From Candidatus Stygibacter australis (GTDB lineage Bacteria > Cloacimonadota > Cloacimonadia > Cloacimonadales > TCS61): 64,000 nt of DNA. Positions 21,132 through 63,451 of this stretch are shown here, piece by piece (position 1 is the stretch's first letter; the number at the start of each line of letters is the position of its first letter). The notes beneath the pieces are model-generated. The model had not been told where the DNA came from. It worked only from the letters and a program-made list of their open reading frames with translations, and did not search any database. The translations under genes were made by a program, and so were the position numbers. The DNA lies in the NCBI GenBank assembly GCA_030765845.1, contig JAVCDJ010000203.1:12942-76941 (forward strand), read 5' to 3'.

Positions 21132-21183
21132 GTATTAATTGATGGAAAATCTCTAAGACACTAATTAACAATAACTTATGGTT

Positions 21184-21199
21184 TGGCACGGTTCTTGCA
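21184..21199 (+). promoter_or_regulatory. Sigma-54 (-24/-12) promoter, cassette 3
   Basis: TGGCACGgttcTTGCA. Confidence 0.8.
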
Positions 21200-21233
21200 T
21201 TAGTATATAGTATAATGTGATGGAGGCAAAAAG

Positions 21234-21305
21234 ATGAAAAAGATGAAAAAGAGTATTTTAGCTAGATGGAATGAAAGAAAAGCAAGATTTGGAGGTACAC
21301 GATGA
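21234..21305 (+). CDS. Micro-protein A, copy 3 (23 aa, identical)
   Basis: Same 72-nt sequence as the other copies. The Shine-Dalgarno GGAGG is retained. Confidence 0.65.
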   Translation: MKKMKKSILARWNERKARFGGTR

Positions 21306-21367
21306 AGCACACTAAACTTGTAAGCAAGTGGAATGAGCGTCGTAATCGTTATGCCGGAAAGCGGTAA
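21302..21367 (+). CDS. Micro-protein B, copy 3 (21 aa) MKHTKLVSKWNERRNRYAGKR
   Basis: The Leu6 codon is CTT, a third synonymous variant. There are two conservative replacements near the C-terminus (V18A, R20K). Confidence 0.6.
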   Translation: MKHTKLVSKWNERRNRYAGKR

Positions 21368-21392
21368 TGAGACGGCCCAGAAAAATCCCTAA

Positions 21393-21430
21393 TCCGGTAA
21401 AAATCAATAGTTTTTACCGGATTTTTTTTT
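21393..21430 (+). terminator. Intrinsic terminator, cassette 3
   Basis: Stem tccggtaaaaa / tttttaccgga with loop tcaatag, followed by a T9 run. Confidence 0.8.
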
Positions 21431-21562
21431 GGATAATATGCTGAAATAATATAGTATCTTAATGTGCTGCTGATGAAAAATATCTGAAATTTATTCAATG
21501 TTTATTGACTTATGCCATATAATTTATTCAATTTGCCTGATTAATTACGGAGGAAAAGAAAT

Positions 21563-36289: not shown

Positions 36290-37524
36290 TACTTGAAATT
36301 CTCTATGATTTCACCATAATAATCCAAAAGTTTCGCTGTCACTGAAGTCCATGAATATTCTGCTTTCACCTCAGTCAAAGCATTTTGCTTCAATTCTTTC
36401 ATTAATCCCGGATTATCTACAAGCTGCCGATATTTCTTTTCCAGATCATCGAGACTTCCATCAAATACCAGTCCTGTTCTTTCATTCTGCACAAGGCGCT
36501 TCAATCCTCCCACACCGGAAGTGATAACGGGCAATCCGCTTGCCCAGGCTTCCAAAACTACAATCCCAAAAGGCTCATGAATGGATGGCAGGATAAACAC
36601 GTTTGCTGCCTGATATGCTTTTACAAGGTCTTTTGAATCAGATTCAAGACCGGGGATTATAGTTACCTGCTTATCCAAAGAATATGTTTTGATCAAATCC
36701 TTGAGTTTCTCATAATAAGTTTCTGAAGTTACTGGTCCCAATAATACCAAATAGACTTTTTCTTCTTTGCCACGCAGACGTTCAATAAGCTCAATTAAAA
36801 TAGCCTGATTTTTCTGATAGTCAATTCTGGAAAGACAGAGGATCATCTTAGCATCTTCAGCTATCTGGTATTTCTCCCTAAAATCATTTTCGGCAAGGGG
36901 TTTGAATTTTTCTATATCAACGCCATTTGGCAGATAATAAACAAGTTTTTCAGGATATTTATTCCTGGTGATCTCATATTCATTATAGCCCACACAAATG
37001 ATAGCGTCAGCATCAGTGAGATACCTGTCCTTCTGGATCATCAGATCAATCAATTTCCCATAATTGAAAGTATTTTTATAAGGCTCAATCATCAGCTTCA
37101 TTTCCTCAGCCGGCACGTCAAAATGCCCTCCATGAAATGAAACCAGATATGGTATCTTTCTCTTCCGTGCTGCCAGACGCACACTGGCTGCTATTCTATT
37201 CATGGTATGGCAGTGGATAATATCCAGATCCTTCTTGTCCCGCATATATTTATATAAACACCAGGAATAAGGATTTCCACCTTTTTTATCAAGAGTCTTT
37301 TTCTTAATACTGGTAAGGTTCAAATAAGGATAAAAATAATTAAATCTGCGGATTGGTATTTCATTTCTAACCTCATTATGCTTCTGGGCTAGCGCCTGGG
37401 TAGCTAATATTTCCACGGGATTGCCTGTCCGATTTAATTCCTGAGAAGTATTCCAGACCACGGTTTCCGTACCACCCCATTCACAAAAAGCAAAACGCCT
37501 GATCACCTGCAGACTATTGATCAT
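36286..37524 (-). CDS. Glycosyltransferase family 4 (GT-B)
   Basis: 'VFILPSIHEPFGIVVLEAWASGLPVITSGVGGLKRLV'. Confidence 0.85.
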   Translation of the reverse strand: MINSLQVIRRFAFCEWGGTETVVWNTSQELNRTGNPVEILATQALAQKHNEVRNEIPIRRFNYFYPYLNLTSIKKKTLDKKGGNPYSWCLYKYMRDKKDLDIIHCHTMNRIAASVRLAARKRKIPYLVSFHGGHFDVPAEEMKLMIEPYKNTFNYGKLIDLMIQKDRYLTDADAIICVGYNEYEITRNKYPEKLVYYLPNGVDIEKFKPLAENDFREKYQIAEDAKMILCLSRIDYQKNQAILIELIERLRGKEEKVYLVLLGPVTSETYYEKLKDLIKTYSLDKQVTIIPGLESDSKDLVKAYQAANVFILPSIHEPFGIVVLEAWASGLPVITSGVGGLKRLVQNERTGLVFDGSLDDLEKKYRQLVDNPGLMKELKQNALTEVKAEYSWTSVTAKLLDYYGEIIENFKY

Positions 37525-39542
37525 GATTCAGATCTCTCAAAATTCATAATGAATTTGGTTTCATTCACACCTACGATTCGTTTTTGAACTATCTCATCTG
37601 CCAGTTGGTGAATTACATATATAGAATTCTCTTCATTATCCATTTTCTGGCTAAAATCTATTTCTGTTACCTGCCTGGGCAATTCCCATACTGATCCTTT
37701 ATCCCAGAAGGTTAATTCAAGTTTATTTTCATAAATCCTTAAACGAATAACAATAACGCTTTCTCTACCCTTCTCTGAGATATGAGCCAGGATTTTATTT
37801 AGAAATTCATTTACCAGCAGTTCAGTAGGGAATGCCAGATCATCAAGGTCTCTGGCTTTCAGAAATTCTTCACATCGTTTTCCCACTTCTCCACTATTTA
37901 CTTTTACGGGATTGATTATATAGTAACGGATTTTGTCATTCTGGTCACGTCTGAGATTCAAGGAAAGTATCGTAAAATCATCAGTACTGATATCAAATCC
38001 ATTTTCCTCGATTATATTCTTCAATACATAGGGCACCATCACAGTACTATTATCAGGAGTAACTTTGGTAAGCATCTTTGTAATACCATCAATTCCCAGT
38101 TCTTCCTGCTCCTTATTTTCACACTCAAACATCCCATCCGTATAAAAAAGATAGCTTGTATGCTCATCAAGTTTAAGGATATCTTCTTCTTCTTTGGTAT
38201 ATTCAAAATCAGCTACCCAGCCAATAGGGATTGATCCGTTAGAATTTATTATTGCCACGTCTCCATTTGATTTATTAAAACTGATAATAGGAGGATGCCC
38301 GGCATTATAATAGATAAATTCCTTTTTGTCAGGATCCACCACTCCCAGTAGCAGAGTAAGATAATTGTTTTGAAAAACGTCTCTGGATAATAAAAGATTA
38401 AGCTGATTGACGATCTCACTGGGATGCAGATAAGCCACTACGTTATCCACCAGCATTTTAATTGTAGCCTTCACTGCTGTCATCATCAGAGCGCTCTGCA
38501 CTCCATGACCGGAAATGTCTCCTATATAGATCACATATCTGCCATCTTTCAGGGGGATTAAATCAAAAAGATCTCCACCTACATTGGTTGATGGAGTATA
38601 ATTATTGGAAAAAAGCAGCTTCTCTTCAACACAAAGCCAGTCTGGTAAAAAAAATGTCTGAACTGATGCAGCTGTCTCCAATTCGCTTATCAGTGAATTA
38701 TACAGATGGTCTCGATCTCTTTGTGATTCCACCCTGTCATTGATATCATTAATCACTACAATGAATTTGGATACCTGGTTTTCTGTTGATAAGATCATGG
38801 ATACTGAAATTTCTGCCCAGAATTTCTTTCCTCCCGGCAGAAATATCTCTTCCTCTGATCGGAAACTTAATTCTGATCCATCATGATAGGCTTCGGTTGA
38901 AACCTTAAGATGATTGATCGTAAAGCTGTCATCAGCAAAATATTCATTAAAATAATGCGATAAAACTGTAAATTCTTCCTCATCAAACATGGACGCAAGC
39001 GCTTGATTGGAAAATATTATCCGCAGATCAGTATCTATAATTCCCATGCCCACAACCACATTCTCAAATAATGCCTGCAATTGCACCTGGCTTTCACGCA
39101 GGTTGCGTTCTGCCACTTGACGGCGTGCCGCTTCTTCTATTGCTTTCTGCTGCAAATGCATCTGCTCATATATCTTACTCACAATAGCAAATAGATCGCG
39201 ATTATCCACCGGTTTTAGGACAAATTTATCTACACCAATATCAATTGCTTTTAAAAAATATTCTGACTCGCTATGGGCGGAAGTAATAATGATCTGAACA
39301 TCTGAATTCAATCTCTTGATATTTGAGATCATTTCCAGACCATCCATGTGAGGCATTCTAATATCTGAGATCACTAAATCTGGCTTATGCTCTTGAAAAA
39401 CAGCTAAACCTTCCCTACCGTCTGATGCTACATAAACATCTGTAATCCTGCGTCTTAGCATCTCATAGATAGTGTTGCGTACTACGTCTTCATCTTCAAC
39501 GTAAAGTACACATAGTTTCAACTTCTCAAATTTAGCACTCAA
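37521..39542 (-). CDS. Response regulator: REC, PAS, PP2C/SpoIIE phosphatase and RsbW-like HATPase domains
   Basis: REC: 'VLYVEDEDVVRN...KPDLVISDIRMPHMDGLE...KPV'. PAS-like region at ~aa 150-280. SpoIIE: 'VGGDLFDLIPLKDGRYVIYIGDISGHGVQSALMM...YTDG'. C-terminal 'LLVNEFLNKILAHI...IRLRIYENKLELTFWDKG' resembles an anti-sigma kinase. Confidence 0.85.
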   Translation of the reverse strand: MSAKFEKLKLCVLYVEDEDVVRNTIYEMLRRRITDVYVASDGREGLAVFQEHKPDLVISDIRMPHMDGLEMISNIKRLNSDVQIIITSAHSESEYFLKAIDIGVDKFVLKPVDNRDLFAIVSKIYEQMHLQQKAIEEAARRQVAERNLRESQVQLQALFENVVVGMGIIDTDLRIIFSNQALASMFDEEEFTVLSHYFNEYFADDSFTINHLKVSTEAYHDGSELSFRSEEEIFLPGGKKFWAEISVSMILSTENQVSKFIVVINDINDRVESQRDRDHLYNSLISELETAASVQTFFLPDWLCVEEKLLFSNNYTPSTNVGGDLFDLIPLKDGRYVIYIGDISGHGVQSALMMTAVKATIKMLVDNVVAYLHPSEIVNQLNLLLSRDVFQNNYLTLLLGVVDPDKKEFIYYNAGHPPIISFNKSNGDVAIINSNGSIPIGWVADFEYTKEEEDILKLDEHTSYLFYTDGMFECENKEQEELGIDGITKMLTKVTPDNSTVMVPYVLKNIIEENGFDISTDDFTILSLNLRRDQNDKIRYYIINPVKVNSGEVGKRCEEFLKARDLDDLAFPTELLVNEFLNKILAHISEKGRESVIVIRLRIYENKLELTFWDKGSVWELPRQVTEIDFSQKMDNEENSIYVIHQLADEIVQKRIVGVNETKFIMNFERSES

Positions 39543-41446: not shown

Positions 41447-41533
41447 GCTACCTCCTAATTTCTCCCCACATTCATTATCCACTTCCAAATGTCAATTCCT
41501 TTCAAAAAATGAACAACCCCGCCAAGTCAGATG

Positions 41534-41679
41534 TGCACCGCTGGCGTATTCCGCAAGTGGGGCGCAGATGACGACCGCAATCAACCAATCCATGAAAATA
41601 GCTAAGGTGGAAAATATAGATTGCTGCTGAAAACTGCCCGTAGTTCTCGCCCCACTTCCGGAGTACCGTTAGCGGTGCA
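41534..41679 (+). other. GC-rich 146-nt imperfect hairpin (30-bp basal stem); candidate structured ncRNA or miniature inverted-repeat element
   Basis: The arms 41534-41564 and 41648-41679 pair over about 30 positions with one bulge and one mismatch. Three pairs are G-T, which can pair only if the plus strand is the RNA. An inner gcaatc/gattgc stem lies at 41577-82 / 41619-24. The element is much more GC-rich than its surroundings. Confidence 0.4.
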
Positions 41680-41860
41680 GGTCCTATTAATTTTGGAAAT
41701 TATCAAATGTTCGCTCTAATCAAAGATGTTTTTGTGAAACATGCTCCCCCAAATCAGACATTTTCAGCTAAAATCCATCAAAATATGACCTTTAGGGCAT
41801 TTAAGACCTATAACTACTATAAATAATATTCACTTAGCCCCTAAAGTGGATTTGAGGAGG

Positions 41861-41910
41861 AACAACAAAGAACATAGTGACATTTTTTTGTGAGATAGTG
41901 CTTTGTTGTT
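41861..41910 (+). repeat. REP-like hairpin element, copy C (degenerate)
   Basis: Arms aacaacaaagaac / gtgctttgttgtt (one mismatch) flank atagtgacatttttttgtgagata. The left flank ..aggagg.. is shared with copies A and B. Confidence 0.55.
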
Positions 41911-42066
41911 ACACATTAAGGGTGGGTAATGGGCGGGTGTGGTACAGGTGTTTTAGGGGATAATAGCTGAAAATTGGTGAGAATTGGGGTGGGAAAATGG
42001 ACTTTATAGACATGATGGATGAAGTGGACGTAAGGTTATGATTTTATCCTAAAATGAGATTTCGGG

Positions 42067-42104
42067 TGTACGCTGGCGAACAGTGTTCTGTTCACAGGCG
42101 TACA
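42067..42104 (+). promoter_or_regulatory. Dual palindromic upstream activator sites for the adaptor/ABC/FtsX operon
   Basis: TGTACGCTGGCGAACA (42067-42082) matches the cassette-2 palindrome at 15 of 16 positions. TGTTCACAGGCGTACA lies at 42089-42104. The 22-bp offset is the same as in the cassettes. Confidence 0.6.
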
Positions 42105-42140
42105 GTCCGGGGGATAGTGAAAATATGATAAATTTATGTA

Positions 42141-42153
42141 TATCAGGCGTTTA
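42141..42153 (+). promoter_or_regulatory. IHF-like site (WATCAR-N4-TTR)
   Basis: TATCAGgcgtTTA lies just upstream of the -24 element. The same motif and position occur in cassettes 1 and 2. Confidence 0.35.
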
Positions 42154-42159
42154 TGAGAG

Positions 42160-42175
42160 TGGTACGCAAATTGCA
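42160..42175 (+). promoter_or_regulatory. Sigma-54 (-24/-12) promoter of the exporter operon
   Basis: TGGTACGcaaaTTGCA (GG-N10-GC spacing intact), 38 nt upstream of the ATG at 42213. Confidence 0.7.
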
Positions 42176-42212
42176 TTAGAATTAAGTAAAAAAAGCACTG
42201 TGGGGAAATTTC

Positions 42213-43466
42213 ATGGATAGAAAAATTGAGAAGAAGAAATGGACGACAAAGAAGATAATTCTGCTGGTTGTGGCAGTGGTAGTTATTGGCTTAGTGTTAT
42301 ACAGCGCAATCTGGGGAGATCATCGGAGTAAATTCAATGTTCAGACTGACCGTATAACTATTGAAGAAGTAGTGGAAGATTATTTTCAGGATTATATCAC
42401 AGTAACCGGTCGGGTGGTACCGAGCCGGACAGTTTATCTTGATGCCATGGAAGGTGGCAGGGTAGAAGAAGTGTTTTTGGAAGAAGGCTCATTAGTAGAA
42501 GAAGGTGATATAATATTGCGGTTAAGCAATGCGAATCTATATTTGAGCATAATGAACCGTGAAGCAGATCTGGCAGATCAGATCAATAATCTGCGTAGCA
42601 CACGATTATCTATGGAACAGAACAAACTGAGCCTGCGTCAGCAGCTTTTGGAAGTAAATTATCAGCTTGAGCAGCAGCAGCGAGATTATGCCCAGAAGCA
42701 GAAGCTATATGAGCAGGAATTCATTTCAGAAGAGGATTATTTACGCTCCCAGGAAGCATATCAATATTCTTTACAGCGTCAAAGTCTGGTGGTTGAGAGC
42801 CAGAAAACGGATTCCTTATTCCGGGCAATTCAGATCGAGCAGCTTGAGAATTCAGTTACCAATATGGAAGAGAATCTGGGCATGGTCCGAGATAAACTGG
42901 AGAATTTGAATGTACGCGCACCTATTAGTGGACAGCTTGTATCTTTGAATGCAGAGATAGGAGAAGCTAAATCCCAGGGACAGAGATTGGGTGAAATTAA
43001 TGTAGTAGGATCTTATAAGATCAATATGGATGTAGATGAGCATTATATTTCACGGATAAATCGAGATTTAATGGGTGAATTTGAATTTGCAGGAGGTACC
43101 TATCAATTAAAGGTAAGCAAGATCTATCCAGAAGTTCAGAACGGCAGGTTTAGTGTGGATCTGGAATTTTCTGGTGAAGAATACCCCGAGAATTTACGAA
43201 CGGGCCAGACTTTTAGAATTAAATTGGAATTAGGCGAATCGAGTATGGCACTATTATTACCTCGAGGTGGTTTTTATCAAAGTACTGGAGGGCAGTATGT
43301 GTTTGTGATCAATCCCGATGGCAAGAGTGCGGATCAGCGGGAGATAAGATTAGGCAGAATGAATCCGCGCTATTATGAAGTTCTGGAAGGACTGGAAGCT
43401 GGAGAAAGAGTTATCATATCAAGTTATACAAATTTTGGCAGAGCCGAAAAATTAATATTAAAATAA
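42213..43466 (+). CDS. HlyD/MacA-type periplasmic adaptor (membrane fusion protein)
   Basis: N-terminal TM anchor. Lipoyl-like 'VEEGDIILRL'. A long coiled-coil hairpin at aa ~110-225. 'VRAPISGQLVSLNAEIGE' and a C-terminal beta-barrel region. Confidence 0.85.
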   Translation: MDRKIEKKKWTTKKIILLVVAVVVIGLVLYSAIWGDHRSKFNVQTDRITIEEVVEDYFQDYITVTGRVVPSRTVYLDAMEGGRVEEVFLEEGSLVEEGDIILRLSNANLYLSIMNREADLADQINNLRSTRLSMEQNKLSLRQQLLEVNYQLEQQQRDYAQKQKLYEQEFISEEDYLRSQEAYQYSLQRQSLVVESQKTDSLFRAIQIEQLENSVTNMEENLGMVRDKLENLNVRAPISGQLVSLNAEIGEAKSQGQRLGEINVVGSYKINMDVDEHYISRINRDLMGEFEFAGGTYQLKVSKIYPEVQNGRFSVDLEFSGEEYPENLRTGQTFRIKLELGESSMALLLPRGGFYQSTGGQYVFVINPDGKSADQREIRLGRMNPRYYEVLEGLEAGERVIISSYTNFGRAEKLILK

Positions 43467-43479
43467 AACTGGAGGAACA

Positions 43480-44169
43480 ATGATCAAGACAAACAATTTA
43501 ATGAAGGTGTATCGTACAGACGAAGTGGAAACCCTGGCATTGAATAACGTGAATATTCACGTGGAAGCAGGAGAATTTGTGGCAATAATGGGACCCTCAG
43601 GTTGTGGGAAATCCACATTACTGAATGTGATCGGACTTTTGGATAATCCCACAGACGGTGAGTATTTCTTTAATAGTACCGATGTGGCAAAGTTCAAGGA
43701 ACGTCAGCGTACTAATATGCGTAAATCAAATGTAGGCTTTATCTTTCAGAGTTTTAATCTGATTGATGAGCTTACTGTTTATGAGAATGTGGAGCTGCCT
43801 TTATTATATCTTAAGATGGCGGCAAGTGAACGTAAGGCAAGAGTAAATGAGGTATTGGATAGAATGAAGATAGCTCATAGAGCCAAGCATTTTCCGCAGC
43901 AGCTTTCTGGTGGACAGCAGCAGCGCGTGGCAGTTGCCCGTGCCGTGATCACTAATCCCAAGCTGATACTTGCAGATGAGCCTACTGGAAATCTGGATAG
44001 TGCCAATGGAGAAGAAGTGATGGATATGCTTACACAGTTAAATGAAGCCGGAACTACCATTGTGATGGTAACTCACTCACCTACAGATGCAGAATATGCA
44101 CACCGGATCATCCAATTATTTGATGGTCACATAGTAACCGAGAATATCAAAAAAGAATTTCATTTATAA
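43480..44169 (+). CDS. ABC transporter ATP-binding protein (MacB/LolD-type), copy 1
   Basis: Walker A 'GPSGCGKST', signature '[14 protein letters not shown]', Walker B '[11 protein letters not shown]', H-loop 'VTHS'. Confidence 0.95.
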
Positions 44170-44204: not shown

Positions 44205-46625
44205 ATGTTCTGGAATTATCTCAAAATAGCAGTACGCAATTTAATGCGTAAGAAATTTTATACCATAATCAACATTGCCGGGCTGGCAATAGGGATTTGC
44301 TGTGCTATCATGATCGGGCTTTATGTACAGAATGAGCTTTCTTATGATAAGTATAACGAAGATTATGAGCGCATTTACCGGTTGGAATCACATTTCACGA
44401 TCAATGAAACGGATGATCTTTTTGCGGTAACAGCAATACCTTTGGCTCCGGCAATCAAGCTCGAATTTCCCGAAGATGTTGAGCAATATTGCCGTTACCG
44501 TGCTATGGACAACAATCTTTTTCAGATTGATAACAAGAAGTATTTTGAAGACAATGTTCACTATGCTGATTCTACGGTATTTGAGATATTTTCCTATGAA
44601 TTTTTACGCGGTGAACCATCAGAAGCGCTTGATGACCCCAATGAAATCGTGCTTACTGAAAGCTTTGCCAGACGCATTTTTGGTACACAAGATCCATTAG
44701 GCGAATATCTGGAGACAGGATACGGTTTTGGATTTACCGTTACGGGTGTGATCAAGGATCTGCCGCAAAACAGTCATTTGAACTTTGAGGCTCTTGCTTC
44801 CATGGTAACACTGGCTCAATTTTATGGAGCAGAAACATTTCACAGTCTGGATCCCAATCTTTTCTGGAATGTGGGATTTTACTCATTTATAAAACTAACA
44901 GAGGGCGGATCAATTGACAACATCATGCGAGGTTATCCTGCCTTTAATGAAAAATACATCAAAGCGTTAGGAGAAACCCTCAATGCCAAATTCCAGTTAA
45001 TGGCGCAGCGACTGGATAAAGTGCATTTGAATTCCAAACTGAAATATGAGCTACCTACCGGTAATATGGGGTATGTTTTTATCTTTGGCATTGTAGCACT
45101 TTTTCTATTATTGATAGGCTGCATAAACTACATGAATATGGCGACAGCGCAATCATCAGGACGTGCAACAGAAGTGGGAATCCGCAAAGTAGCAGGAGCG
45201 CAGAGAGGTTCATTGCAAATGCAATTCCTGCTGGAATCAGTAGTGATCAGCATATTTGCTTATGTGTTGGCAGTATTAGCAGTGGAATTGCTCTTGCCGA
45301 CATTTAATGAGCTTGCCGGAAGAGAACTCAGCTTAAACATTGGTGAAAACCTTAATTATTATGGGTTATTTCTGTTGGTGAGCGTAGTGGTGGGATTAGT
45401 ATCGGGTAGTTATCCAGCATTTTACCTATCATCGTTTGTACCCGTGGAAGTACTTAAAGGAAAATTGAGCAAGGGAAGTACAACCTTACGTAAGCTTTTG
45501 GTAGTAGTGCAATTTTCCATATCTATCATCATGATAATCTGTACTCTGGGAGTGGTAAGTCAGCTTAAATTCATGCAGAATACTGATCTGGGATTTGATA
45601 AAGATAATATAGTGGTTTTGACAATTAGAGATACAACGGGAGCCAGAAATCTGGCAACCTTTAGAGATGAGCTTTTGCAGCATCCGAAGATATTGAAAGC
45701 CGGCACATCATCAAGCATACCAGGTAGTGGATATGGTATCATTGTGCAGCGTTTTGAAACAGATGAAGGTGAGATGAGTGAGAAAGCCATCAACTTTGTG
45801 ATGGTTGATGAGAATTATCTGGATGTGATGGATATAAAGATACTATTGGGTAGAGAATTTGATCCTGAACTGGCAACCGATCTGGAAGAAGCCTGCCTGA
45901 TAAATCAAAGCTGTGCAGAAAATCTGGGCTGGGGTGAAAATGCCATTGGCAAGAAACTTGATTTCGGAGCCGCACCAGACGGAACAGCAACCAGAAATAC
46001 ACGCGTGATTGGAGTAGTGAAAGATTTTCATTACACATCTCTGCACAATCTGATTGATCCACTCATATTAATGCTTTCTGATGAGCCATTACAGACAATA
46101 ACGTTACGGATAGATCAAAGTGATCTGGAATCTACCCTGAGTTTTATGGAAGAGAAATGGAACGAATTTTGCCCGACATTTCCTTTCAGCTACGAATTTA
46201 TGGATGACAACCTGAGAGCACAATATGAAGCAGAAGAAAAGACCAGCCGTGTATTTAGTTATTTCACCATTATCTGCATTTTCATTGCCTGTCTGGGACT
46301 TCTGGGCTTAACAGCTTATGCCACGGAGCAAAGGATCAGAGAGATCAGCATCCGTAAAGTACTGGGTGCCACAGAGAAATCAATCGTATATCTGCTAACC
46401 AGCAATTTTGCCATCCTGGTGATAATTTCCAATGTAATAGCCTGGCCTGTTGCCTGGTGGGGAATGAAAAATTGGTTGGAGAATTTTGCCTATAGTACAA
46501 AACTTTCACCACTTATATATGTCGCAGCAGGATTGATAGCATTAATAATTGCCATATTGACAATAAGCATCAGAGCAATACATGCCGCAAGGACAAATCC
46601 GGCAGATGCTTTGAAATACGAATAG
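44205..46625 (+). CDS. Double-FtsX (MacB-like) ABC permease, paralogue 1
   Basis: 806 aa. N-terminus 'NYLKIAVRNLMRKKFYTIINIAGLAIG'. Two periplasmic domains are each followed by an FtsX 3-TM module ('EVGIRKVAGA', 'EISIRKVLGA'). C-terminus 'NPADALKYE'. Confidence 0.9.
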   Translation: MFWNYLKIAVRNLMRKKFYTIINIAGLAIGICCAIMIGLYVQNELSYDKYNEDYERIYRLESHFTINETDDLFAVTAIPLAPAIKLEFPEDVEQYCRYRAMDNNLFQIDNKKYFEDNVHYADSTVFEIFSYEFLRGEPSEALDDPNEIVLTESFARRIFGTQDPLGEYLETGYGFGFTVTGVIKDLPQNSHLNFEALASMVTLAQFYGAETFHSLDPNLFWNVGFYSFIKLTEGGSIDNIMRGYPAFNEKYIKALGETLNAKFQLMAQRLDKVHLNSKLKYELPTGNMGYVFIFGIVALFLLLIGCINYMNMATAQSSGRATEVGIRKVAGAQRGSLQMQFLLESVVISIFAYVLAVLAVELLLPTFNELAGRELSLNIGENLNYYGLFLLVSVVVGLVSGSYPAFYLSSFVPVEVLKGKLSKGSTTLRKLLVVVQFSISIIMIICTLGVVSQLKFMQNTDLGFDKDNIVVLTIRDTTGARNLATFRDELLQHPKILKAGTSSSIPGSGYGIIVQRFETDEGEMSEKAINFVMVDENYLDVMDIKILLGREFDPELATDLEEACLINQSCAENLGWGENAIGKKLDFGAAPDGTATRNTRVIGVVKDFHYTSLHNLIDPLILMLSDEPLQTITLRIDQSDLESTLSFMEEKWNEFCPTFPFSYEFMDDNLRAQYEAEEKTSRVFSYFTIICIFIACLGLLGLTAYATEQRIREISIRKVLGATEKSIVYLLTSNFAILVIISNVIAWPVAWWGMKNWLENFAYSTKLSPLIYVAAGLIALIIAILTISIRAIHAARTNPADALKYE

Positions 46626-46637
46626 GAATATAAAATC

Positions 46638-49070
46638 ATGATACTGAATTATCTAAAAATTGCTTACCGGAATATACTCCGTCAGAAGTTTTATTCACTG
46701 CTGAATATAGCGGGACTGGCTATCAGCATCACCTGTTGTATTTTGATCAGTCTTTATATTCAGGAAGAAGTATCATACGATAAATTTCAGCCAGGTGGAG
46801 AACGTATTTATCGTTTGGTTAACCGGAATAATATGGGGGGGAAGATCGATACTTACTGCAATGCCCCACGACCTATAACCCCTCAAATGAAAGAAATATA
46901 TCCAGAAATAGAAGCAGTAACACGGGTGAGGGGAGCAAATGGATTATACACTCATTCAGCAAATATCTCCTATGAGCAGAATCTGATAGCTTCAGAAAAG
47001 GTATATATTGTGGACTCGACTTTTTTTGATGTTTTTGCCACGGAATTTATTGCTGGTAACCCAAAGGATGGTTTAACCGGAGAAGTTGGAATACTCATCT
47101 CTGAGAGCCTGGCAAAGAAATTGTTTGGATCAGAAGAAGCATTGGGTAAAACCATGCTCTTAGATGAACAATTTCCGATAACTGTTAAAGCAGTATTCAA
47201 AGATCAGCCGGGACGGAGTCATTTTGAATATGAAGCTCTTTTACCCTGGAGGTTAGCTTATAGACAGGGAGAGGAAATTGCCTGGTATGGCTGGCAGGTA
47301 TATCATTATCTAAAATTGTATGAAGGTGCTGATGCAAAAGAGCTTCAGGCAAAATTCCCTCAATTTTTCACTGATTATATGAAAGAGAAATATGATACTC
47401 TGGATGGTACGTCAGAGCTGTCTCTGCAGCCTCTTAAAGATATTCATCTGAAATCAAATCTTATCTGGGAAATGGTTCCTAATGGCAATCTTAATAATTT
47501 ATATATTATGGCATCCATAGGATTATTCTTATTGATAATTGCCTGTATTAATTATGTGAATCTGGCAACAGCCAGATCAGTAAGGCGAGCCAGAGAAGTG
47601 GGGCTCAGGAAATTATTCGGTTCTCCACGAGGACTATTGATCCGCCAGTTTTTAGTGGAATCTATCATTTTATCATTGATTGCTTCTCTGGTTGCACTGG
47701 TCATTGCAGAATTATTATTACCAGTATTTAATAGTATTGCTGTACGGGACATCAGTTTAAATTTATTAAATAATCATGTTCTGATCCTGGGGATTATTGG
47801 ATTAGGAATATTTGTGGGACTTCTGGCAGGAATATATCCGGCATTAGTGTTGTCAAATTTTAGCATTGTGGAAGCAATAAAATCAAGATCAGAAAATGGC
47901 ACAGGTGGTATGGTGCTGCGTAAGATATTAATAGTTATGCAGTTTGCAATTTCAATCACCCTTATCATTTCCACTCTTATTTTGGTTGAGCAGATGAAAT
48001 TTGCCCGGGATATTGATATGGGGTTCAATAAGGAAAATGTGCTGGCAGTTACCGTGCGCGATACACTGGTAGCCAGGAATCTCCAAGTGATCAAACAGGA
48101 ACTCAGAGATAATCCTGAGATAATCTCAGCAGCTTGTTCATTAAATATGCCAGGCACTACTTTTAACCGTTTTCCAGCAACTATTGAAAATAATGAGGGA
48201 GGTTTTAGTCAGACGAGTTGCCAATTCATGCAGATAGATTATGATTTTATTCCCACGATGGATATGACTATAGTTGAAGGCAGAAACTATCAGCGTGATC
48301 AGGAAGAGAATCGTTTTTCAGTGATATTAGTAAATGAAGCTTTAGTGAGAAAATTTGGCTGGGATAACCCAATCGGAAAGCGTGTATTTCTTTATACAGA
48401 TAGCTTAGGCACTGCATTTTATCAGGAAGTGATTGGAGTAGTAAAAGATTTTCATCCCAATTCCGTGCGGCAGGAGATCAGTCCTATGATAATATATCTG
48501 ATCAATGATAATCTGGAAGCACGCAGCGGAGGAAATCTGAATCTGTTTATCCGTTTAAAAGGTGAGAATCTGCATCAGACAATGACTGATATCAAAGATA
48601 TCATTCAGCAATATAATCCTGATGATCCATTTCAGTATGTATTTCTGGATGAACATCTGAGCCGGATGTATGAAGGGGAAGAAAGATTGATCCAGCTTTT
48701 CAGTTATTTTACTATGATGATCATCTTTATAGCCTGTCTGGGATTATTTGGACTGGCATCATTCACGGCAGAAAAGCGAAGAAGAGAAATCGGTATTCGC
48801 AAAGTGCTGGGTGCCACTATCCGTCAGATAGTGCTTTTATTATCAACAGAATTTTCACGCTGGGTGCTATTGGCAAACGTAATCGCCTGGCCCCTTGCCT
48901 GGTATTTCATGAATAAATGGTTAGAGAATTTTGCCTACCACATCCAGATAACTCTTCTTAATTTCATCATCGCCGGTCTGGCAGCCTTAGTGATAGCATT
49001 ATTTACGGTAAGTTTTCAGGCATTAAGGGCAGCAATGAGCAATCCGATAAAATCAATCAGGTATGAGTAA
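46638..49070 (+). CDS. Double-FtsX (MacB-like) ABC permease, paralogue 2
   Basis: 810 aa with the same architecture. 'NYLKIAYRNILRQKFYSLLNIAGLAIS', 'EIGIRKVLGA', C-terminus 'NPIKSIRYE'. Confidence 0.9.
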   Translation: MILNYLKIAYRNILRQKFYSLLNIAGLAISITCCILISLYIQEEVSYDKFQPGGERIYRLVNRNNMGGKIDTYCNAPRPITPQMKEIYPEIEAVTRVRGANGLYTHSANISYEQNLIASEKVYIVDSTFFDVFATEFIAGNPKDGLTGEVGILISESLAKKLFGSEEALGKTMLLDEQFPITVKAVFKDQPGRSHFEYEALLPWRLAYRQGEEIAWYGWQVYHYLKLYEGADAKELQAKFPQFFTDYMKEKYDTLDGTSELSLQPLKDIHLKSNLIWEMVPNGNLNNLYIMASIGLFLLIIACINYVNLATARSVRRAREVGLRKLFGSPRGLLIRQFLVESIILSLIASLVALVIAELLLPVFNSIAVRDISLNLLNNHVLILGIIGLGIFVGLLAGIYPALVLSNFSIVEAIKSRSENGTGGMVLRKILIVMQFAISITLIISTLILVEQMKFARDIDMGFNKENVLAVTVRDTLVARNLQVIKQELRDNPEIISAACSLNMPGTTFNRFPATIENNEGGFSQTSCQFMQIDYDFIPTMDMTIVEGRNYQRDQEENRFSVILVNEALVRKFGWDNPIGKRVFLYTDSLGTAFYQEVIGVVKDFHPNSVRQEISPMIIYLINDNLEARSGGNLNLFIRLKGENLHQTMTDIKDIIQQYNPDDPFQYVFLDEHLSRMYEGEERLIQLFSYFTMMIIFIACLGLFGLASFTAEKRRREIGIRKVLGATIRQIVLLLSTEFSRWVLLANVIAWPLAWYFMNKWLENFAYHIQITLLNFIIAGLAALVIALFTVSFQALRAAMSNPIKSIRYE

Positions 49071-49084
49071 ATGAGGGAAATATT

Positions 49085-51457
49085 ATGATATTCAGTATAA
49101 TCAAGACAGCGATCAGGCATTTATATAAGAGAAAAGCGTTTTCTTTGATCAATATACTGGGACTGGCTATAGGAATGAGCTGCTGTATATTCATATTGCT
49201 CTGGGTGAGTGATGAGCTTAGTTATGACAGATTTCATCCTAATTTTGAGAATATCTATCGCGTGGCAGAAAATCAGAAACAGGGAGATGACCCCTTTCCT
49301 GTAGGTGTCACTCCTGCTCCCTTAGGTCCTGCAATGGTAGAAAGTTTTCCTGAGATAATTAACAGTGTGCGTATTCAATATGGCGTAAGCGGATTAATAA
49401 AATACGATGATAAATTGTTTCGTGAATCAGATATTATTCTTACCGATCCGTCATTTTTTGAGGTATTTAATTTTCCACTGTTGAAAGGTGATAAAAGTCA
49501 GGTGCTGGCAGAGAATAGCTCATTTGTGATCACTGAATCCATTGCCAAAAAGTATTTTGGAGACGAAGACCCCATTGGTAAAGTGTTAAATTTTAATAAT
49601 GCTATCGATCAAACAGTAACTGGTGTGATGGCAGATCCCCCTGCAAACACCCATCTTCAATTCGATATAATAGCTCCATTTAAAATTCTGGAACAGTTTG
49701 GTGCTGATCTTGAAACCAGTTGGGGCAGTAATTCATATATTACTTATGTGGAACTGGCAGATAAGGTGCCATATAAGGAATTGAACGCAAAAATTGAGGA
49801 TTTTCTATCTGAACATGATCCTGGATATTATGTGGAATTGCATTTGCAGCCACTTAAAGACATGCACTTGAAATCTAATTATACTGCAGACTGGAGTGGG
49901 CATGGCAGTGAGTTGTACGTTAAGATGTTTTCATTAATTGCTGTATTTATCCTGGTGATCGCCTGCATTAATTTCATGAATTTATCTACTGCCCAGTCAC
50001 CATTAAGAGCACGCGAGATTGGCATTAGAAAAGTTGCAGGTGCAAATCGCAGTTTGCTTATCTGGCAGTTTTTGGGTGAATCTTTGCTGATAGCGTTCCT
50101 GGCACTGTGTATTGGTATTGTCATAGTAGAAATTCTCCTGCCTTATTACAATACTTTTACCGGCAAGGAGATGAGCCTTGATCTTACGGGTAACTGGAGA
50201 TTATTAACTGGTATTATATTAATTGCTTTGATCACAGGATTTGTAGCTGGCAGTTATCCAGCTCTGGTATTATCAGGATTTAAGCCCGTACAGGTATTAA
50301 AAGGCAAAGTAAGCAGCAGTAAAGGTGGAGCGATATTTAGAAAGGTGTTAGTGATCTTTCAGTTCACACTTTCCATAGCTTTGATCTCAAGCACTATGAT
50401 AATATTTAAGCAGATAAATCTCATACGCAATATTGATCTGGGCTATAATAAAGATCAGATCATTAAAATAAATCAGAATACAAGTTTGAGACCCCAGTTT
50501 GAGGCATTTAAAGCAGAATTATTAAGTAACCCCAGGATAAAATCACTTACTACCTCCAGCGGACGACCTACAGATATTTATAACTCCGGGTATGGATTAA
50601 GTTGGGAAGGGATGCCGGATTCCGAAGATAGAAGACATCTAGTGCATACTCTTAATGTGGGTCCGGGTTTTTTTGAGACATTTGATATCAAGATCAAAGA
50701 AGGCAGAGCTTTTTCTAGTGAAATTACATCTGATACTTTGAATTATATCTGTAATAGTGAAGTGCTTAAGATAATCGGAAAAGATAATCCTCTGGGAATC
50801 GGGATATCATATTATCGTGAGGAAGAAGGGGAATTAATCGGAATAGTAGAAGATTTTCATTTTAAATCTTTGCACAGTAAAATAGAACCTTTAATAATCT
50901 CATTTGCAGATAAAAATGTACATGATCAGATATTCATCAGGATGCAGACAGGTGATATGGAAGCAACTTTATCTGATATAAAAACATTATGGGAAAAATA
51001 CAGTGATGATTATCCTTTTGAATACAGGTTCCTGGATGAATATTATGATCGATTATACAAGGCCGAATTCCGGATGAGCAAATTGTTCAACCTGTTTGCT
51101 GTCCTGGCAATTCTGATTTCCTGTCTGGGTCTCTTTGGGCTGGTTTCTTATACAACAACCTGCCGGATCAGGGAGATAGGTATCAGAAAAGTAATGGGAG
51201 CAAGCGTCGCGAACATTCTGGTGCTGCTATCAAGCAGATTCCTGATATTAGTTATATTCTCAAACCTTCTGGCAGGAGCACTTTCCTGGTATTATATGAC
51301 GAAATGGTTAGATAATTTTGCTTATAGAATAGATGCCGGGATATTGAATTTTATCTATGCTGGTCTAATTGCTCTGGGGGTTGCCTTGATCACTTTGAGC
51401 TGGCATACGCTTAAAGCAGCAAACGCTAATCCCATAAGATCATTAAGGTACGAGTAG
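49085..51457 (+). CDS. Double-FtsX (MacB-like) ABC permease, paralogue 3
   Basis: 790 aa. 'AIRHLYKRKAFSLINILGLAIG', 'EIGIRKVMGA', C-terminus 'NPIRSLRYE'. Confidence 0.9.
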   Translation: MIFSIIKTAIRHLYKRKAFSLINILGLAIGMSCCIFILLWVSDELSYDRFHPNFENIYRVAENQKQGDDPFPVGVTPAPLGPAMVESFPEIINSVRIQYGVSGLIKYDDKLFRESDIILTDPSFFEVFNFPLLKGDKSQVLAENSSFVITESIAKKYFGDEDPIGKVLNFNNAIDQTVTGVMADPPANTHLQFDIIAPFKILEQFGADLETSWGSNSYITYVELADKVPYKELNAKIEDFLSEHDPGYYVELHLQPLKDMHLKSNYTADWSGHGSELYVKMFSLIAVFILVIACINFMNLSTAQSPLRAREIGIRKVAGANRSLLIWQFLGESLLIAFLALCIGIVIVEILLPYYNTFTGKEMSLDLTGNWRLLTGIILIALITGFVAGSYPALVLSGFKPVQVLKGKVSSSKGGAIFRKVLVIFQFTLSIALISSTMIIFKQINLIRNIDLGYNKDQIIKINQNTSLRPQFEAFKAELLSNPRIKSLTTSSGRPTDIYNSGYGLSWEGMPDSEDRRHLVHTLNVGPGFFETFDIKIKEGRAFSSEITSDTLNYICNSEVLKIIGKDNPLGIGISYYREEEGELIGIVEDFHFKSLHSKIEPLIISFADKNVHDQIFIRMQTGDMEATLSDIKTLWEKYSDDYPFEYRFLDEYYDRLYKAEFRMSKLFNLFAVLAILISCLGLFGLVSYTTTCRIREIGIRKVMGASVANILVLLSSRFLILVIFSNLLAGALSWYYMTKWLDNFAYRIDAGILNFIYAGLIALGVALITLSWHTLKAANANPIRSLRYE

Positions 51458-51463
51458 GCAGCC

Positions 51464-53866
51464 ATGTTCAGGAATTATCTGTTAACTGCGCTCCGAAATA
51501 TCAGAAGAAATAAGCTTCTGACGGTGATCAATGTTACAGGTCTCACTCTTTGTTTTGTTTGTGTATTTTTAATCGCCGTTTATTGCCTGAATGAATGCTG
51601 TTACGATAAATATAACAAAAATTCACAGGATATCTACAGGGTGATCAGATCCTATGAATCTGCTGATGGGGTGCTCAGATACGAAGGTAATTGTCCTGAC
51701 AGAATTGGAAGGGATTTCCAGTTGTCATATCCTGATCAGGTTTCATCAGTAAGTAGATTATGGAATTACTGGGGACTGGGTTTTAATATTCAGTATAATG
51801 ACGTGCTCTATCAGGAGAAGAATCTATTTTATGCCGATAAAGGTATATTTGATATTTTTGATATTGAAGTATTAGCTGGTGATGTTTCAGGATCATTTGA
51901 TCAACCAGGTCAAGTGGCAATATCGGAAACAACAGCAAAGGTTTATTTCAATGGTGAAGATGCGGTTGGTAAATCGCTGAAAGTCAATAATGGTTATGAT
52001 CTAACCGTTTGCGCCGTAATAAGTGATCTCCCCCGACAATCGCATCTTCACTTAGATTTTATTGCTTCATTTTCTACGTTGGAAAGTCAACCCTGGAATA
52101 GATATTTAGGGTCACTCGATAGTGACTTCTGCTATGTTTACTTATTAGCAAACAGTGGTAGTCAGGAGCTGGAAATAGCTTTTGACAGTTATTGCCAAAA
52201 CCACATACCAGCAGAATATAGAGATCAGAATAAATTACTGCTTCAGCCTTTAGAAAAGATTCACCTTGATAATAAACTGGTGGATGAAATAGAAACTGGG
52301 GGAAACCGGAAGCAGTTATTTATTCTGAGATTCATCGCCATGTTTCTGCTTCTGATCACTACAATAAATTATATAAATCTAAGCCTGGCATCCAGTAGCA
52401 GAAGGCTTCATGAAATCAATCTTTATCGGGTAAATGGAGCCAGCAGAATTCAAATTATCTGGCAATTCCTGATTGAAGCTTTAATAATATGTACATTTTC
52501 ACTCCTGGCAGCAATGACGATCATTGAATCATCATTACCAGTGATCAGCAGATATGTTGGCATATATTATCAAAATTCTCAGATCTGGAGTCTGAGATCA
52601 GTTCTGCAGCTTATCAGCACGGGATATTTTATCAGTATTTTAATTAGTATCTATCCAGCTATAATAATCTCTCGGCTGAGTCAGAGTGAGTTCATAAATT
52701 TCCAAATAGTAACATCAAAAAGCCTTATCTGGAAGAAATTGCTGGTGATCACTCAGTTGATGATAACAACAATTCTGATCACCAGTTCATTGGTAATCTC
52801 CAAACAGGTCAATTTTCTGGAGAATTTTGATACCAATTATGATAAAGATAATCTTGTCATCCTGCCGGTGAATAATACGCCCATAGCAGATGAGAAATAT
52901 CAGGCATTCAAAGATGATATACTCTCTAATGGTAAAGTTGAGAGTGTTTGTGGAATGCGTACTATAGCGGGTATGAATCATATCAGTGAGGGTTTTTCAA
53001 TCACAGAAGATTTTTCTGAACAATCAAAAGTACCTTTCCTTCTGGTGAGAGATGATTTTCCGGCAACATTTGGGCTAAATATTGTTGCCGGGCGTAACTT
53101 TGTAACTGGAGATAAAGGCGATATAGATTCAGGAGTTTTAATAAATGAAGAATATGCGCAGGTCTTGGGATATGAGCCAGATGAAGCGATAGGCAGAAAC
53201 CTGTATCATCAAGGTTGGGGCAAATTGACTATCATTGGAATCGTGAAAGATTTCAATTTTGAATCTTTGCACCGCGATATCAAACCTTTGGTGATCAAGC
53301 AGATATGGGAAAGCAGGTATTCATCATTAACTGATTATATTGCCATCAGGACTACTGTGAATGAAACAACTAAGATCATCCCCTATTTAGAGGAAACCTG
53401 GGAGAAATCCGCTCCGGAAAGCGCTTTTGAGTTTATGACGTTAAGAACTGGTTTGAGTGGAAATTATGAGAATGAAAGAATTACGGGAAAGATCACGGTT
53501 ATATTTACTTATATTGCCATTATCACAGCAAGTTTTGGTCTTCTGGGTTTGATGCTGTTGATCACAGAAAATCGCAGGCGCGAGATCGGGATCAGAAAAT
53601 CGCTGGGAGCAGGTATTTATAGTCTGATAATGCTTGTTATCACAGAACAGCTCAATCTTACTCTATTAGCATTTATTTTAGCTATACCGGCTGCCTTGAT
53701 ATTTTTAAACCAATGGCTGGCAAATTTCGCCTACAGAACGTCAATATCGCTTGAATCAATTTTAACTGCAGGTTTAGTGATATTATTGATTTGTATCTTT
53801 ACGATAAGTATTCAGATATTAAAGGCAAGTCATACAAATCCTGCTGATATTTTACGAAATGAATAG
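51464..53866 (+). CDS. Double-FtsX (MacB-like) ABC permease, paralogue 4 (most divergent)
   Basis: 800 aa. 'NYLLTALRNIRRNKLLTVINVTGLTL', 'EIGIRKSLGA', C-terminus 'NPADILRNE'. Confidence 0.85.
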   Translation: MFRNYLLTALRNIRRNKLLTVINVTGLTLCFVCVFLIAVYCLNECCYDKYNKNSQDIYRVIRSYESADGVLRYEGNCPDRIGRDFQLSYPDQVSSVSRLWNYWGLGFNIQYNDVLYQEKNLFYADKGIFDIFDIEVLAGDVSGSFDQPGQVAISETTAKVYFNGEDAVGKSLKVNNGYDLTVCAVISDLPRQSHLHLDFIASFSTLESQPWNRYLGSLDSDFCYVYLLANSGSQELEIAFDSYCQNHIPAEYRDQNKLLLQPLEKIHLDNKLVDEIETGGNRKQLFILRFIAMFLLLITTINYINLSLASSSRRLHEINLYRVNGASRIQIIWQFLIEALIICTFSLLAAMTIIESSLPVISRYVGIYYQNSQIWSLRSVLQLISTGYFISILISIYPAIIISRLSQSEFINFQIVTSKSLIWKKLLVITQLMITTILITSSLVISKQVNFLENFDTNYDKDNLVILPVNNTPIADEKYQAFKDDILSNGKVESVCGMRTIAGMNHISEGFSITEDFSEQSKVPFLLVRDDFPATFGLNIVAGRNFVTGDKGDIDSGVLINEEYAQVLGYEPDEAIGRNLYHQGWGKLTIIGIVKDFNFESLHRDIKPLVIKQIWESRYSSLTDYIAIRTTVNETTKIIPYLEETWEKSAPESAFEFMTLRTGLSGNYENERITGKITVIFTYIAIITASFGLLGLMLLITENRRREIGIRKSLGAGIYSLIMLVITEQLNLTLLAFILAIPAALIFLNQWLANFAYRTSISLESILTAGLVILLICIFTISIQILKASHTNPADILRNE

Positions 53867-53875
53867 GAGTGCATT

Positions 53876-56290: not shown

Positions 56291-56298
56291 AAATTATT

Positions 56299-58685: not shown

Positions 58686-59351
58686 ATGCTTAAAATGCAG
58701 AAAGTTTTTAAATACTACGTTAATAAATACCGGCGTGAGTATATCCTCAGGGATATAGACCTGGAAGTGAAGCAGGGAGAATTTATAACTGTGATGGGAC
58801 CATCCGGGGCAGGAAAATCTACTTTGCTTTACCTTTTGGGAATGCTGGAATCTATTGATGAAGGTGAATACCTCTATAAGGATATTCCCATCCATTCCTA
58901 CAATGACAAAAAACGTACAGAGATCCATAAACACGAAATTGGCTTTGTATTTCAGCAATATCATCTGATAGACGAGCTCACAGTTTATGAAAATATTGAA
59001 ATTCCCCTCTTGTACCAAAAAGTGAAATCCGCTGAACGAAAAAGCCTGGTCTGTGATATCCTTGATAAATTCAATATTGTTGCTAAAAAAGACCTTTTCC
59101 CCAATCAGCTTTCTGGAGGACAGCAGCAATTGGTGGGTATCTGCCGGGCTATTATCGGGAAACCAGACCTGCTGCTGGCTGATGAACCTACCGGAAATCT
59201 CAATTCTGAGCAGGGTCTGGAAATTATGGAAGCATTAAAGAAGATGAACCAGCAAGGGACGACTATCATTCAAGTCACACATTCCCGTGAGAAAGCTGCT
59301 TTTGGTGATAGGATCATTAACCTTCTGGATGGCATGATCCAGCCAGATTAA
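58686..59351 (+). CDS. ABC transporter ATP-binding protein (MacB/LolD-type), copy 2
   Basis: Walker A 'GPSGAGKST', signature 'LSGGQQQLVGICRA', Walker B '[11 protein letters not shown]', 'VTHS'. Confidence 0.95.
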   Translation: MLKMQKVFKYYVNKYRREYILRDIDLEVKQGEFITVMGPSGAGKSTLLYLLGMLESIDEGEYLYKDIPIHSYNDKKRTEIHKHEIGFVFQQYHLIDELTVYENIEIPLLYQKVKSAERKSLVCDILDKFNIVAKKDLFPNQLSGGQQQLVGICRAIIGKPDLLLADEPTGNLNSEQGLEIMEALKKMNQQGTTIIQVTHSREKAAFGDRIINLLDGMIQPD

Positions 59352-63441: not shown

Positions 63442-63451
63442 AGGTTATAAA

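Follow-up and report, generated by a model that had tools for sequence, protein, structure and literature searches.

The window analysed here, a 64,000-nucleotide (nt) stretch of the genome of 'Candidatus Stygibacter australis', contains most of a long operon for a MacB-type ABC exporter and, upstream of it, three short cassettes that each carry two genes for very small basic proteins. In front of the first exporter gene, which encodes an HlyD-type adaptor protein, the segment at 42067-42175 carries two palindromic sites followed by a -24/-12 element of the sigma-54 type, and the same module precedes each cassette, pointing to a kind of promoter that exporter and micro-proteins may share. The exporter promoter comprises the following features:

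42067-42082, no strand assigned: site 1 of the upstream activating sequence (UAS), palindrome TGTACGCTGGCGAACA, at -93 from the TGG of the -24 element
42089-42104, no strand assigned: UAS site 2, palindrome TGTTCACAGGCGTACA, at -71 from the TGG
42141-42153, + strand: match to an integration host factor (IHF)-like consensus, TATCAGGCGTTTA, inside the A+T-rich spacer
42160-42175, + strand: sigma-54 -24/-12 element, TGGTACGCAAATTGCA
42213-43466, + strand: HlyD-type membrane fusion (adaptor) protein, gene 1 of the operon (Pfam HlyD_3, HlyD_D23)

Both UAS sites were found where the earlier sequence-only reading had placed them, 16 bp each at a mutual offset of 22 bp, and jointly they form an inverted repeat with 17-nt arms. 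Site 1 differs from the palindrome of cassette 2, TGTACGCTGGCGTACA, at one of 16 positions, in agreement with the 15-of-16 match claimed before. An A+T-rich spacer separates the pair from the -24/-12 element, which is near-consensus, has its GG and GC 10 nt apart and lies 37 nt before the HlyD start codon. From the standard spacing to the -12 element, transcription of the exporter operon is predicted to start near 42186, which would leave a 5' untranslated region (UTR) of about 27 nt. The corresponding elements of the cassettes are laid out as follows:

19894-20228, + strand: cassette 1, with UAS sites at 19894-19909 and 19916-19931, an IHF-like match at 19966-19978 and the -24/-12 element at 19984-19999
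20034-20105, + strand: open reading frame (ORF) 1 of cassette 1, 23 amino acids, MKKMKKSILARWNERKARFGGTR
20102-20167, + strand: ORF2 of cassette 1, 21 amino acids, MKHTKLVSKWNERRNRYVGRR
20195-20220, + strand: terminator hairpin of cassette 1
20413-20750, + strand: cassette 2, with UAS sites at 20413-20428 and 20435-20450, an IHF-like match at 20485-20497 and the -24/-12 element at 20503-20518
20553-20624 and 20621-20686, + strand: ORFs of cassette 2, with a terminator at 20711-20742
21094-21431, + strand: cassette 3, with UAS sites at 21094-21109 and 21116-21131 and the -24/-12 element at 21184-21199, without an IHF-like match
21234-21305 and 21302-21367, + strand: ORFs of cassette 3, with a terminator at 21391-21423

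The cassettes are tandem copies of one unit of about 355 nt (approximately 19877-20230, 20396-20749, and 21077-21430), for which blastn gives 89-95% identity to cassette 1 and an ungapped comparison 90-93%. Their sites lie at -90 and -68 from the TGG, with 36 nt from the -12 GC to the ATG. Between the second site and the -24 element there are 52 nt in each cassette and 55 nt at the exporter, the two ends of the range given in the sequence-only reading. Chance is excluded as a source of the palindromes and of the promoter element. Within the window, TGTWC-N6-GWACA occurs four times where 0.10 matches are expected, and the longer form TGTWCG-N4-CGWACA, with up to two mismatches allowed, occurs eight times where 2.2 are expected; these eight matches are precisely the eight sites of the four modules, with nothing else in the 64 kb. 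The promoter pattern TGGYACG-N4-TTGCA likewise has four matches where 0.01 are expected, all of them 52-55 nt downstream of a site pair. The module has two independent occurrences rather than four, because the three cassettes are tandem paralogous copies.

The shared elements look selected, and this is the main support for a common regulator. In L067, a locus from a close relative that is about 88% identical and has a single cassette, variable columns make up 3-19% of the UAS, -24/-12 element, 5' UTR, and ORFs but 33-53% of the flanks; the spacer between UAS and promoter reaches 35%. When the cassette is aligned locally with the upstream region of the exporter, only the UAS is significantly similar (score 31; shuffled sequences give 19.6 +/- 2.5), and no similarity extends into the transcribed parts. 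Similarity confined to functional blocks points to shared constraint rather than a recent copy; the idea that the cassette is a recent copy of the HlyD promoter together with the 5' end of its coding region was ruled out by the lack of DNA similarity outside the UAS.

Beyond this lineage, the dual-site pattern at 22-bp offset was scanned over one genome per species for 185,579 species, and 43 loci were found, where a rough hand calculation gives a chance expectation of about two. The sequence-only reading had named scattered, non-promoter occurrences of the motif as evidence that would count against it; 22 of the loci adjoin HlyD/ABC/MacB genes and 16 adjoin an NtrC-type response regulator. 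In at least 13 loci, as located by tblastn, the site pair lies in the intergenic region between a divergent regulator–kinase operon and the HlyD operon; eight of these loci come from Cloacimonadota, three from Gammaproteobacteria, and one each from a Sphingomonas and a Sphingobacterium. The same layout, interrupted by the end of the locus, is seen in 3 more Cloacimonadota loci and 1 more Gammaproteobacterium. When the HlyD upstream regions of 11 other Cloacimonadota were aligned with that of the window, the site pair, a spacer of about 50 nt, TTTGGCAC-N5-TTTGC, the Shine–Dalgarno sequence, the ATG, and the protein start MDRKIEKKKW proved to be conserved, and the rest of the DNA has diverged; the -24/-12 element of the window aligns with TGGCAC-N5-TTTGC of the other 11 promoters. 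In nine of the Cloacimonadota loci (L009, L010, L012, L016, L020, L041, L042, L044, and L045), a TTGACG hexamer in the divergent region directly adjoins the site pair, towards the regulator gene, which suggests that the regulator operon is autoregulated from a sigma-70-type promoter.

HlyD orthologs were also fetched by protein homology alone (L174, L175, L177, L178, and L179, with 89, 74, 61, 59, and 55% identity), and every one of these five promoters contains a -24/-12 element at the equivalent place, together with one or more palindromes. The spacing of both sites and the -24/-12 element is preserved in the window, L174, and L175, within intergenic DNA that is otherwise not alignable. Across 16 HlyD-operon promoters, 15 of them from other genomes, the sites lie at -89 to -93 and at -68 to -71 from the TGG of the -24 element, and the distance from the -12 GC to the ATG is 34-44 nt wherever the start codon is reliably placed; the exceptions in geometry are L178, which has a single site at -104, and L009, in which no -24/-12 element was called.

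The regulators that adjoin the site pair in 16 of the 43 loci are proteins of 450-458 amino acids composed of Response_reg, Sigma54_activat, and HTH_8 domains, and their genes are followed by a histidine kinase gene. A regulator of the same build, with a receiver (REC) domain, is adjacent in the homology-derived loci L178 and L179 as well, where it is again divergent and paired with a kinase; divergence is the usual arrangement throughout. These regulators are 45-56% identical across phyla and have the C-terminal helix-turn-helix GNIS-AA-ELGLTRAxLYRR in common, a conserved reading head that fits the conserved operator. A Stygibacter ortholog would be expected to share at least ~60% identity with the L012 regulator and to have GNIS-AAKELGLTRASLYRR at its C-terminus. 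Domain content and gene neighbourhood make this family of REC, sigma-54 AAA+, and HTH_8 regulators the likely activator of the module. It passes none of the NCBIfam equivalog cut-offs, NtrC, AtoC, and ZraR included, the best being PEP-CTERM PrsR with 403 against 503 bits, and its nearest solved structures are generic NtrC-family proteins. At least 7,945 homologs at E <= 1e-120, from Cloacimonadota, Bacteroidota, Acidobacteriota, and Proteobacteria, are all named merely sigma-54-dependent regulators. The partner kinase (L016, L014) has two membrane helices in its first 52 or so residues, connected by an external loop of about 6 residues, and thus belongs to the intramembrane-sensing type, as does BceS.

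Taken together, we read 42067-42175 as an enhancer-dependent sigma-54 promoter, probably regulated by an NtrC-family protein and common to the exporter operon and the micro-protein cassettes, and give this reading a probability of roughly 0.75. In the proposed mechanism, the two TGTNCG-N4-CGNACA palindromes, two helical turns apart and with their centres some 85 and 107 bp ahead of the predicted start, would bind the phosphorylated response regulator, which would loop over the A+T-rich spacer and open the closed sigma-54 complex at TGGTAC-N5-TTGCA to drive the exporter operon. The regulator would come from a widespread, uncharacterised two-component system whose genes lie, in most genomes, divergently and right beside the exporter operon; the Stygibacter lineage would carry this gene pair at another place in its genome. 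Operator and promoter, their geometry unchanged, would then have been recruited ahead of a tandemly amplified cassette for two translationally coupled basic micro-proteins. With the same operator and promoter at both targets, exporter and micro-proteins should be induced together, by whatever signal the kinase may perceive.

Several points weigh against this reading. The sequence-only reading had placed the activator gene outside the window, and the searches agree: neither a sigma-54 activator nor its kinase was found by Pfam scans of the larger ORFs or by tblastn in the window, in the 9 kb beyond it, or in loci L174 and L175, where tblastn for the regulator was run at relaxed thresholds over the window, its continuation L001, L174, L175, and the interval 41489-42066. 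A candidate regulator–kinase pair is present beside the module in other genomes but not in the window or its close relatives, and no Stygibacter-named protein is among the best 120 homologs of a Cloacimonadota regulator. The exporter -24 element reads TGGTAC instead of TGGCAC. Sigma-70-like matches overlap both kinds of promoter: a 9-of-12 match, ATGAGA-18-TAGAAT, at the exporter, and a 10-of-12 match, TTGGCA-17-TATAGT, over the -24/-12 element of each cassette (19983-20011, 20502-20530, and 21183-21211). The 11 aligned Cloacimonadota loci were picked by the motif itself, leaving the five homology-derived loci as the unbiased test. Motifs, conservation, geometry, and neighbouring genes are observations here; binding of the regulator, dependence on sigma-54, joint induction and its signal, and translation of the peptides are inferences. 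The interval 41489-42066, which corresponds to the place of the divergent regulator–kinase operon in other Cloacimonadota, consists of 580 nt without a convincing ORF and with several G-runs (GGGTGGG, GGGCGGG), and tblastn detected no remnant of regulator or kinase genes in it.

The missing regulator genes could mean that the two-component system has been lost in the Stygibacter lineage and that the modules are relics, transcribed constitutively or from sigma-70-type promoters. This would account for the absence of both genes from beside the HlyD operon in the window, L174, and L175, unlike in most genomes, and for the 10-of-12 sigma-70-like hexamers at the cassettes. We nevertheless consider it quite unlikely, given the equal spacing of sites and -24/-12 elements in the same three loci amid neighbouring DNA that cannot be aligned, the retention of the sites in every cassette copy and in L067 despite diverged flanks, and the recruitment of the module by a lineage-specific gene, which argues for an active regulator. 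That the palindromes are operators of some unrelated regulator, for instance a repressor, with a fortuitous likeness to -24/-12 and transcription of the sigma-70 type, seems hardly credible. Palindromes of 16 bp are indeed typical of many dimeric regulators, and the 9-of-12 sigma-70-like match does overlap the region, but matches of this type occur at the chance rate (2 found, 2.1 expected), the -24/-12 element is kept at a fixed distance in at least 16 promoters, the sole regulator gene consistently adjacent across phyla is the sigma-54 activator, and sites at about -85 and -107 lie too far upstream for a classical repressor operator.

A further alternative leaves the shared regulon in place and changes its output: the cassettes might be tandem sigma-54-dependent small RNA (sRNA) genes acting by riboregulation, rather than micro-protein genes. 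Such genes have precedents in Qrr1-5, which are controlled by LuxO, and in GlmY, which is controlled by GlrR with IHF and an overlapping sigma-70 promoter. The unit transcript would be short, about 220 nt, with a strong intrinsic terminator at its end, and nucleotides in the ORF region are conserved beyond coding need; ORF1 shows no synonymous change across four copies, and the 5' UTR is conserved to the same degree, so that constraint at the RNA level, or gene conversion between copies, is possible. The genes nevertheless look like coding sequences. Both ORFs begin with ATG, have GGAGG 6-7 nt ahead, and overlap in ATGA, in an organism with Shine–Dalgarno sequences ahead of 23 of 40 genes. The two micro-proteins are paralogous at the peptide level (K..L..[KR]WNER[KR].R[FY].G.R), with common arginines that are encoded differently (AGA in one, CGT in the other), and in ORF2, three of the five variable sites are third codon positions and most substitutions are synonymous. 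Apart from the terminator, the transcript has no structure (z = -0.23) and no Rfam match, and its complementarity to the HlyD leader is not significant, 49 of 300 shuffles being as good, results that lend no support to a structured sRNA or to an antisense regulator of the HlyD leader. We therefore judge riboregulation to be unlikely and translation of both ORFs to be the better interpretation.

The sequence-only reading had also counted an IHF-like site abutting the -24 element as part of the module, and this part did not hold up. WATCAR-N4-TTR is matched at 42141-42153, 19966-19978, and 20485-20497, at the same relative position, and it has 16 matches in the window against 13.9 expected, which is no enrichment. 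The match is absent from cassette 3, L067, L174, L175, and the 11 other Cloacimonadota promoters, which keep just an A+T-rich spacer at this position. A role for IHF at the exporter promoter is thus unsupported, and no IHF or HU gene turned up within the window. The promoter of L018, from a metagenome-assembled genome (MAG) of the Hymenobacteraceae, carries an IHF-like match and is identical to 42141-42177 at 28 of 37 positions by hand count.

The exporter is a tripartite ABC exporter of the MacB type, with adaptor, ATPase, MacB_PCD+FtsX permease, and outer-membrane factor in one operon. Downstream of the HlyD gene, the window contains the following genes:

43480-44169, + strand: ABC ATPase (Pfam ABC_tran)
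44205-58677, + strand: six consecutive MacB-type permeases (Pfam for the first one, gene tables)
58686-59351, + strand: second ABC ATPase (Pfam)
59367-61094, + strand: insert in the operon, consisting of a C25 peptidase fragment gene and a gene with a type IX secretion system (T9SS) sorting tail (Pfam)
61108-64000, + strand: seventh MacB permease (61108-63441) and the start of the eighth (Pfam, gene tables)

The six permeases at 44205-58677 are about 790-810 amino acids long, and each is a duplicated MacB_PCD+FtsX unit. The operon runs past the end of the window into L001, which is identical to the window in the overlap and adds a ninth permease, an 89-amino-acid gene, and the outer-membrane factor OEP (PF02321) that closes the operon. 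With HlyD, two ABC ATPases, nine MacB-type permeases, and the outer-membrane factor, the operon totals about 27 kb, where the sequence-only reading had put it at more than 21 kb. Gaps between its genes are 6-35 nt, and the nine permeases are paralogs with 25-43% pairwise identity. The best NCBIfam matches are DarC for the adaptor (205.6 against 450 bits) and DarB for the permease (176.7 against 700); the ADOP permease family scores 302 against a cut-off of 622, and no DarBCD or ADOP equivalog cut-off was passed. In a contig from another strain, L003, the insert with the C25 and T9SS genes is missing and the ATPase gene abuts the MacB gene. The HlyD protein has a 100% identical counterpart in the NCBI MAG 'Candidatus Stygibacter australis', an uncultured member of the Cloacimonadota from Ace Lake, Antarctica (PMC8542988).

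Elsewhere in the window, a gene at 37521-39542 (- strand) encodes a response-regulator receiver with PAS, SpoIIE phosphatase, and HATPase_c_2 domains, a protein of the partner-switching type; it adjoins a polysaccharide-synthesis cluster and has no connection with the sigma-54 module. Two long ORFs lie upstream of the cassettes, one of 1309 amino acids without a Pfam match (14232-18161, - strand) and one for a 1279-amino-acid AAA_16/TPR protein (9479-13318, - strand); a gene resembling zinc phospholipase C and a PAP2 gene flank them. Samples differ in cassette copy number: the window and L047 have three copies, L048 has two, and L067 has one. The 168-kb contig L049 begins inside cassette 2, so that assemblies evidently break at the cassette repeat.

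The micro-proteins have no match among Pfam and NCBIfam families, their exact sequences are absent from a collection of 15 billion proteins, and no homologs were found in the 43 genome loci, L174, or L175. A metagenome scan for a pattern of two WNER motifs returned at least 120 loci, and L067 is the sole genuine one among the matches listed; within these matches, the cassettes are confined to this species and that close relative. Their net charges are +8 and +7; both are very hydrophilic, averaging -0.5 and -0.7 on the Eisenberg hydrophobicity scale, have a low overall hydrophobic moment, and show no signal or membrane segment within their 23 and 21 residues. A reading as amphipathic antimicrobial peptides was rejected, as the high hydrophilicity and low hydrophobic moment do not suit classical membrane-active peptides. 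MacB takes its substrates from the periplasmic side, and the same hydrophilicity, together with the lack of an export signal, argues weakly against the micro-proteins as cargo of the pump. The roles as cargo, co-factor, or modulator that had been offered for these peptides are speculation.

Two resemblances were noted in passing. The micro-proteins resemble the N-terminal tail of HlyD, MDRKIEKKKW, with its W at position 10, a weak idea only. They also hold W-N-x-x-K-x-x-F, which is loosely like the darobactin core, WNWSKSF, and is probably a coincidence; a darobactin-like reading as ribosomally synthesised and post-translationally modified peptides was rejected because a radical SAM gene and a leader peptide are both missing and the DarB and DarC scores lie below cut-off.

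Among known systems, NtrB/NtrC at glnAp2, the textbook case of an enhancer-dependent sigma-54 promoter, has the same layout, with tandem palindromic sites about 100 bp upstream of a GG-N10-GC promoter and a REC, AAA+, and HTH_8 response regulator that works with a partner kinase. However, the operator here is TGTNCG-N4-CGNACA, the targets are an efflux operon and micro-protein genes rather than genes of nitrogen assimilation, and the regulator falls below every equivalog cut-off, as described above. GlrK/GlrR (QseE/QseF) at glmY and LuxO at the qrr genes, the nearest parallels for targets of small size, provide cases in which sigma-54 activators control very small, terminator-bounded genes, which for qrr, as for the cassettes, occur in several paralogous copies. 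At glmY, TGTC-N10-GACA sites and IHF sites occur along with a sigma-70 promoter that overlaps perfectly, and the cassettes likewise have an overlapping sigma-70-like match; the small genes here, however, look protein-coding, the operator differs, and IHF lacks support. ZraSR-zraP and PspF-pspA are further examples of a sigma-54 activator that controls a small protein gene in an envelope-related response, and the zraP target is divergent from the regulator genes, as is the exporter operon in the loci of other genomes. The micro-proteins have no sequence relationship to ZraP or Psp, and the main target here is the exporter.

On the exporter side, BceRS-BceAB of the Firmicutes, a module for sensing and detoxifying antimicrobial peptides, is the nearest parallel for the pairing of sensor and pump and offers a two-component system beside an ABC transporter of the FtsX/MacB superfamily that is induced by BceRS, and its kinase also has two membrane helices and almost no external loop. 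Bce-type kinases of such build sense through the transporter, and by analogy alone, the kinase of the present module could sense through its pump. In contrast to BceRS-BceAB, the regulator here is a sigma-54 activator rather than an OmpR-type protein, and the transporter is of the tripartite Gram-negative type with an HlyD adaptor and an outer-membrane factor. MacAB-TolC and DarBCD (darobactin) share with this operon an adaptor, a separate or fused ABC ATPase, a MacB_PCD+FtsX permease, and an outer-membrane factor, but the permeases here are duplicated (about 800 amino acids) and form nine diverged paralogs, the scores are far below the DarBCD equivalog cut-offs (206 against 450 and 177 against 700 bits), and neither a radical SAM maturase nor a leader-peptide precursor gene is present. 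No description of the operator, of the two-component system and its regulator family, or of the micro-proteins was found in the literature, including the description of Stygibacter (PMC8542988). The promoter itself is of a known kind, with a lineage-specific micro-protein output.

Small proteins also follow the module in another lineage. In Pontibacter rufus (L038, approximately 2190-2810, + strand), the site pair and a sigma-54 promoter lie ahead of two tandem paralogous proteins of 54 amino acids, and the Hymenobacteraceae locus L018 has such a 54-amino-acid pair on the reverse strand, about 230-600 nt downstream of the UAS. These proteins have a hydrophobic N-terminus and a YPNLLPEV motif and match no family, and their occurrence raises the possibility that small-protein pairs are recurrent outputs of the regulon. 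A bolder and rather doubtful extension is that a widespread sensing module, composed of the near-loopless kinase and the sigma-54 regulator, switches on MacB-type pumps and has repeatedly recruited pairs of tiny proteins as outputs in separate lineages (the leaderless basic proteins of 21 and 23 residues in Stygibacter and the two 54-residue proteins with hydrophobic N-termini in Hymenobacteraceae), which would cooperate with pump or sensor, whether as modulators, as feedback connectors, or as substrates, and would not be unrelated passengers.

Sigma-54 control of FtsX/MacB exporters has hitherto been a matter of statistical promoter enrichment only, in a computational survey of 2025 that found sigma-54 promoters upstream of COG0577 (FtsX/MacB) permeases in Gammaproteobacteria, Opitutia, and Bacteroidia (PMC12316311). 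The present analysis provides for such control a testable operator, TGTNCG-N4-CGNACA pairs at -90 and -68 from the -24 element, and a candidate regulator family. The module is common in gut, soil, and aquatic bacteria, with cultured carriers among them such as Sphingobacterium endophyticum, Pontibacter rufus, and Ferrimonas pelagia. In Stygibacter, a lineage-specific and unannotated pair of micro-proteins appears to have been wired into this ancient regulon, and their predicted co-induction with an efflux array would be the first handle on their role.

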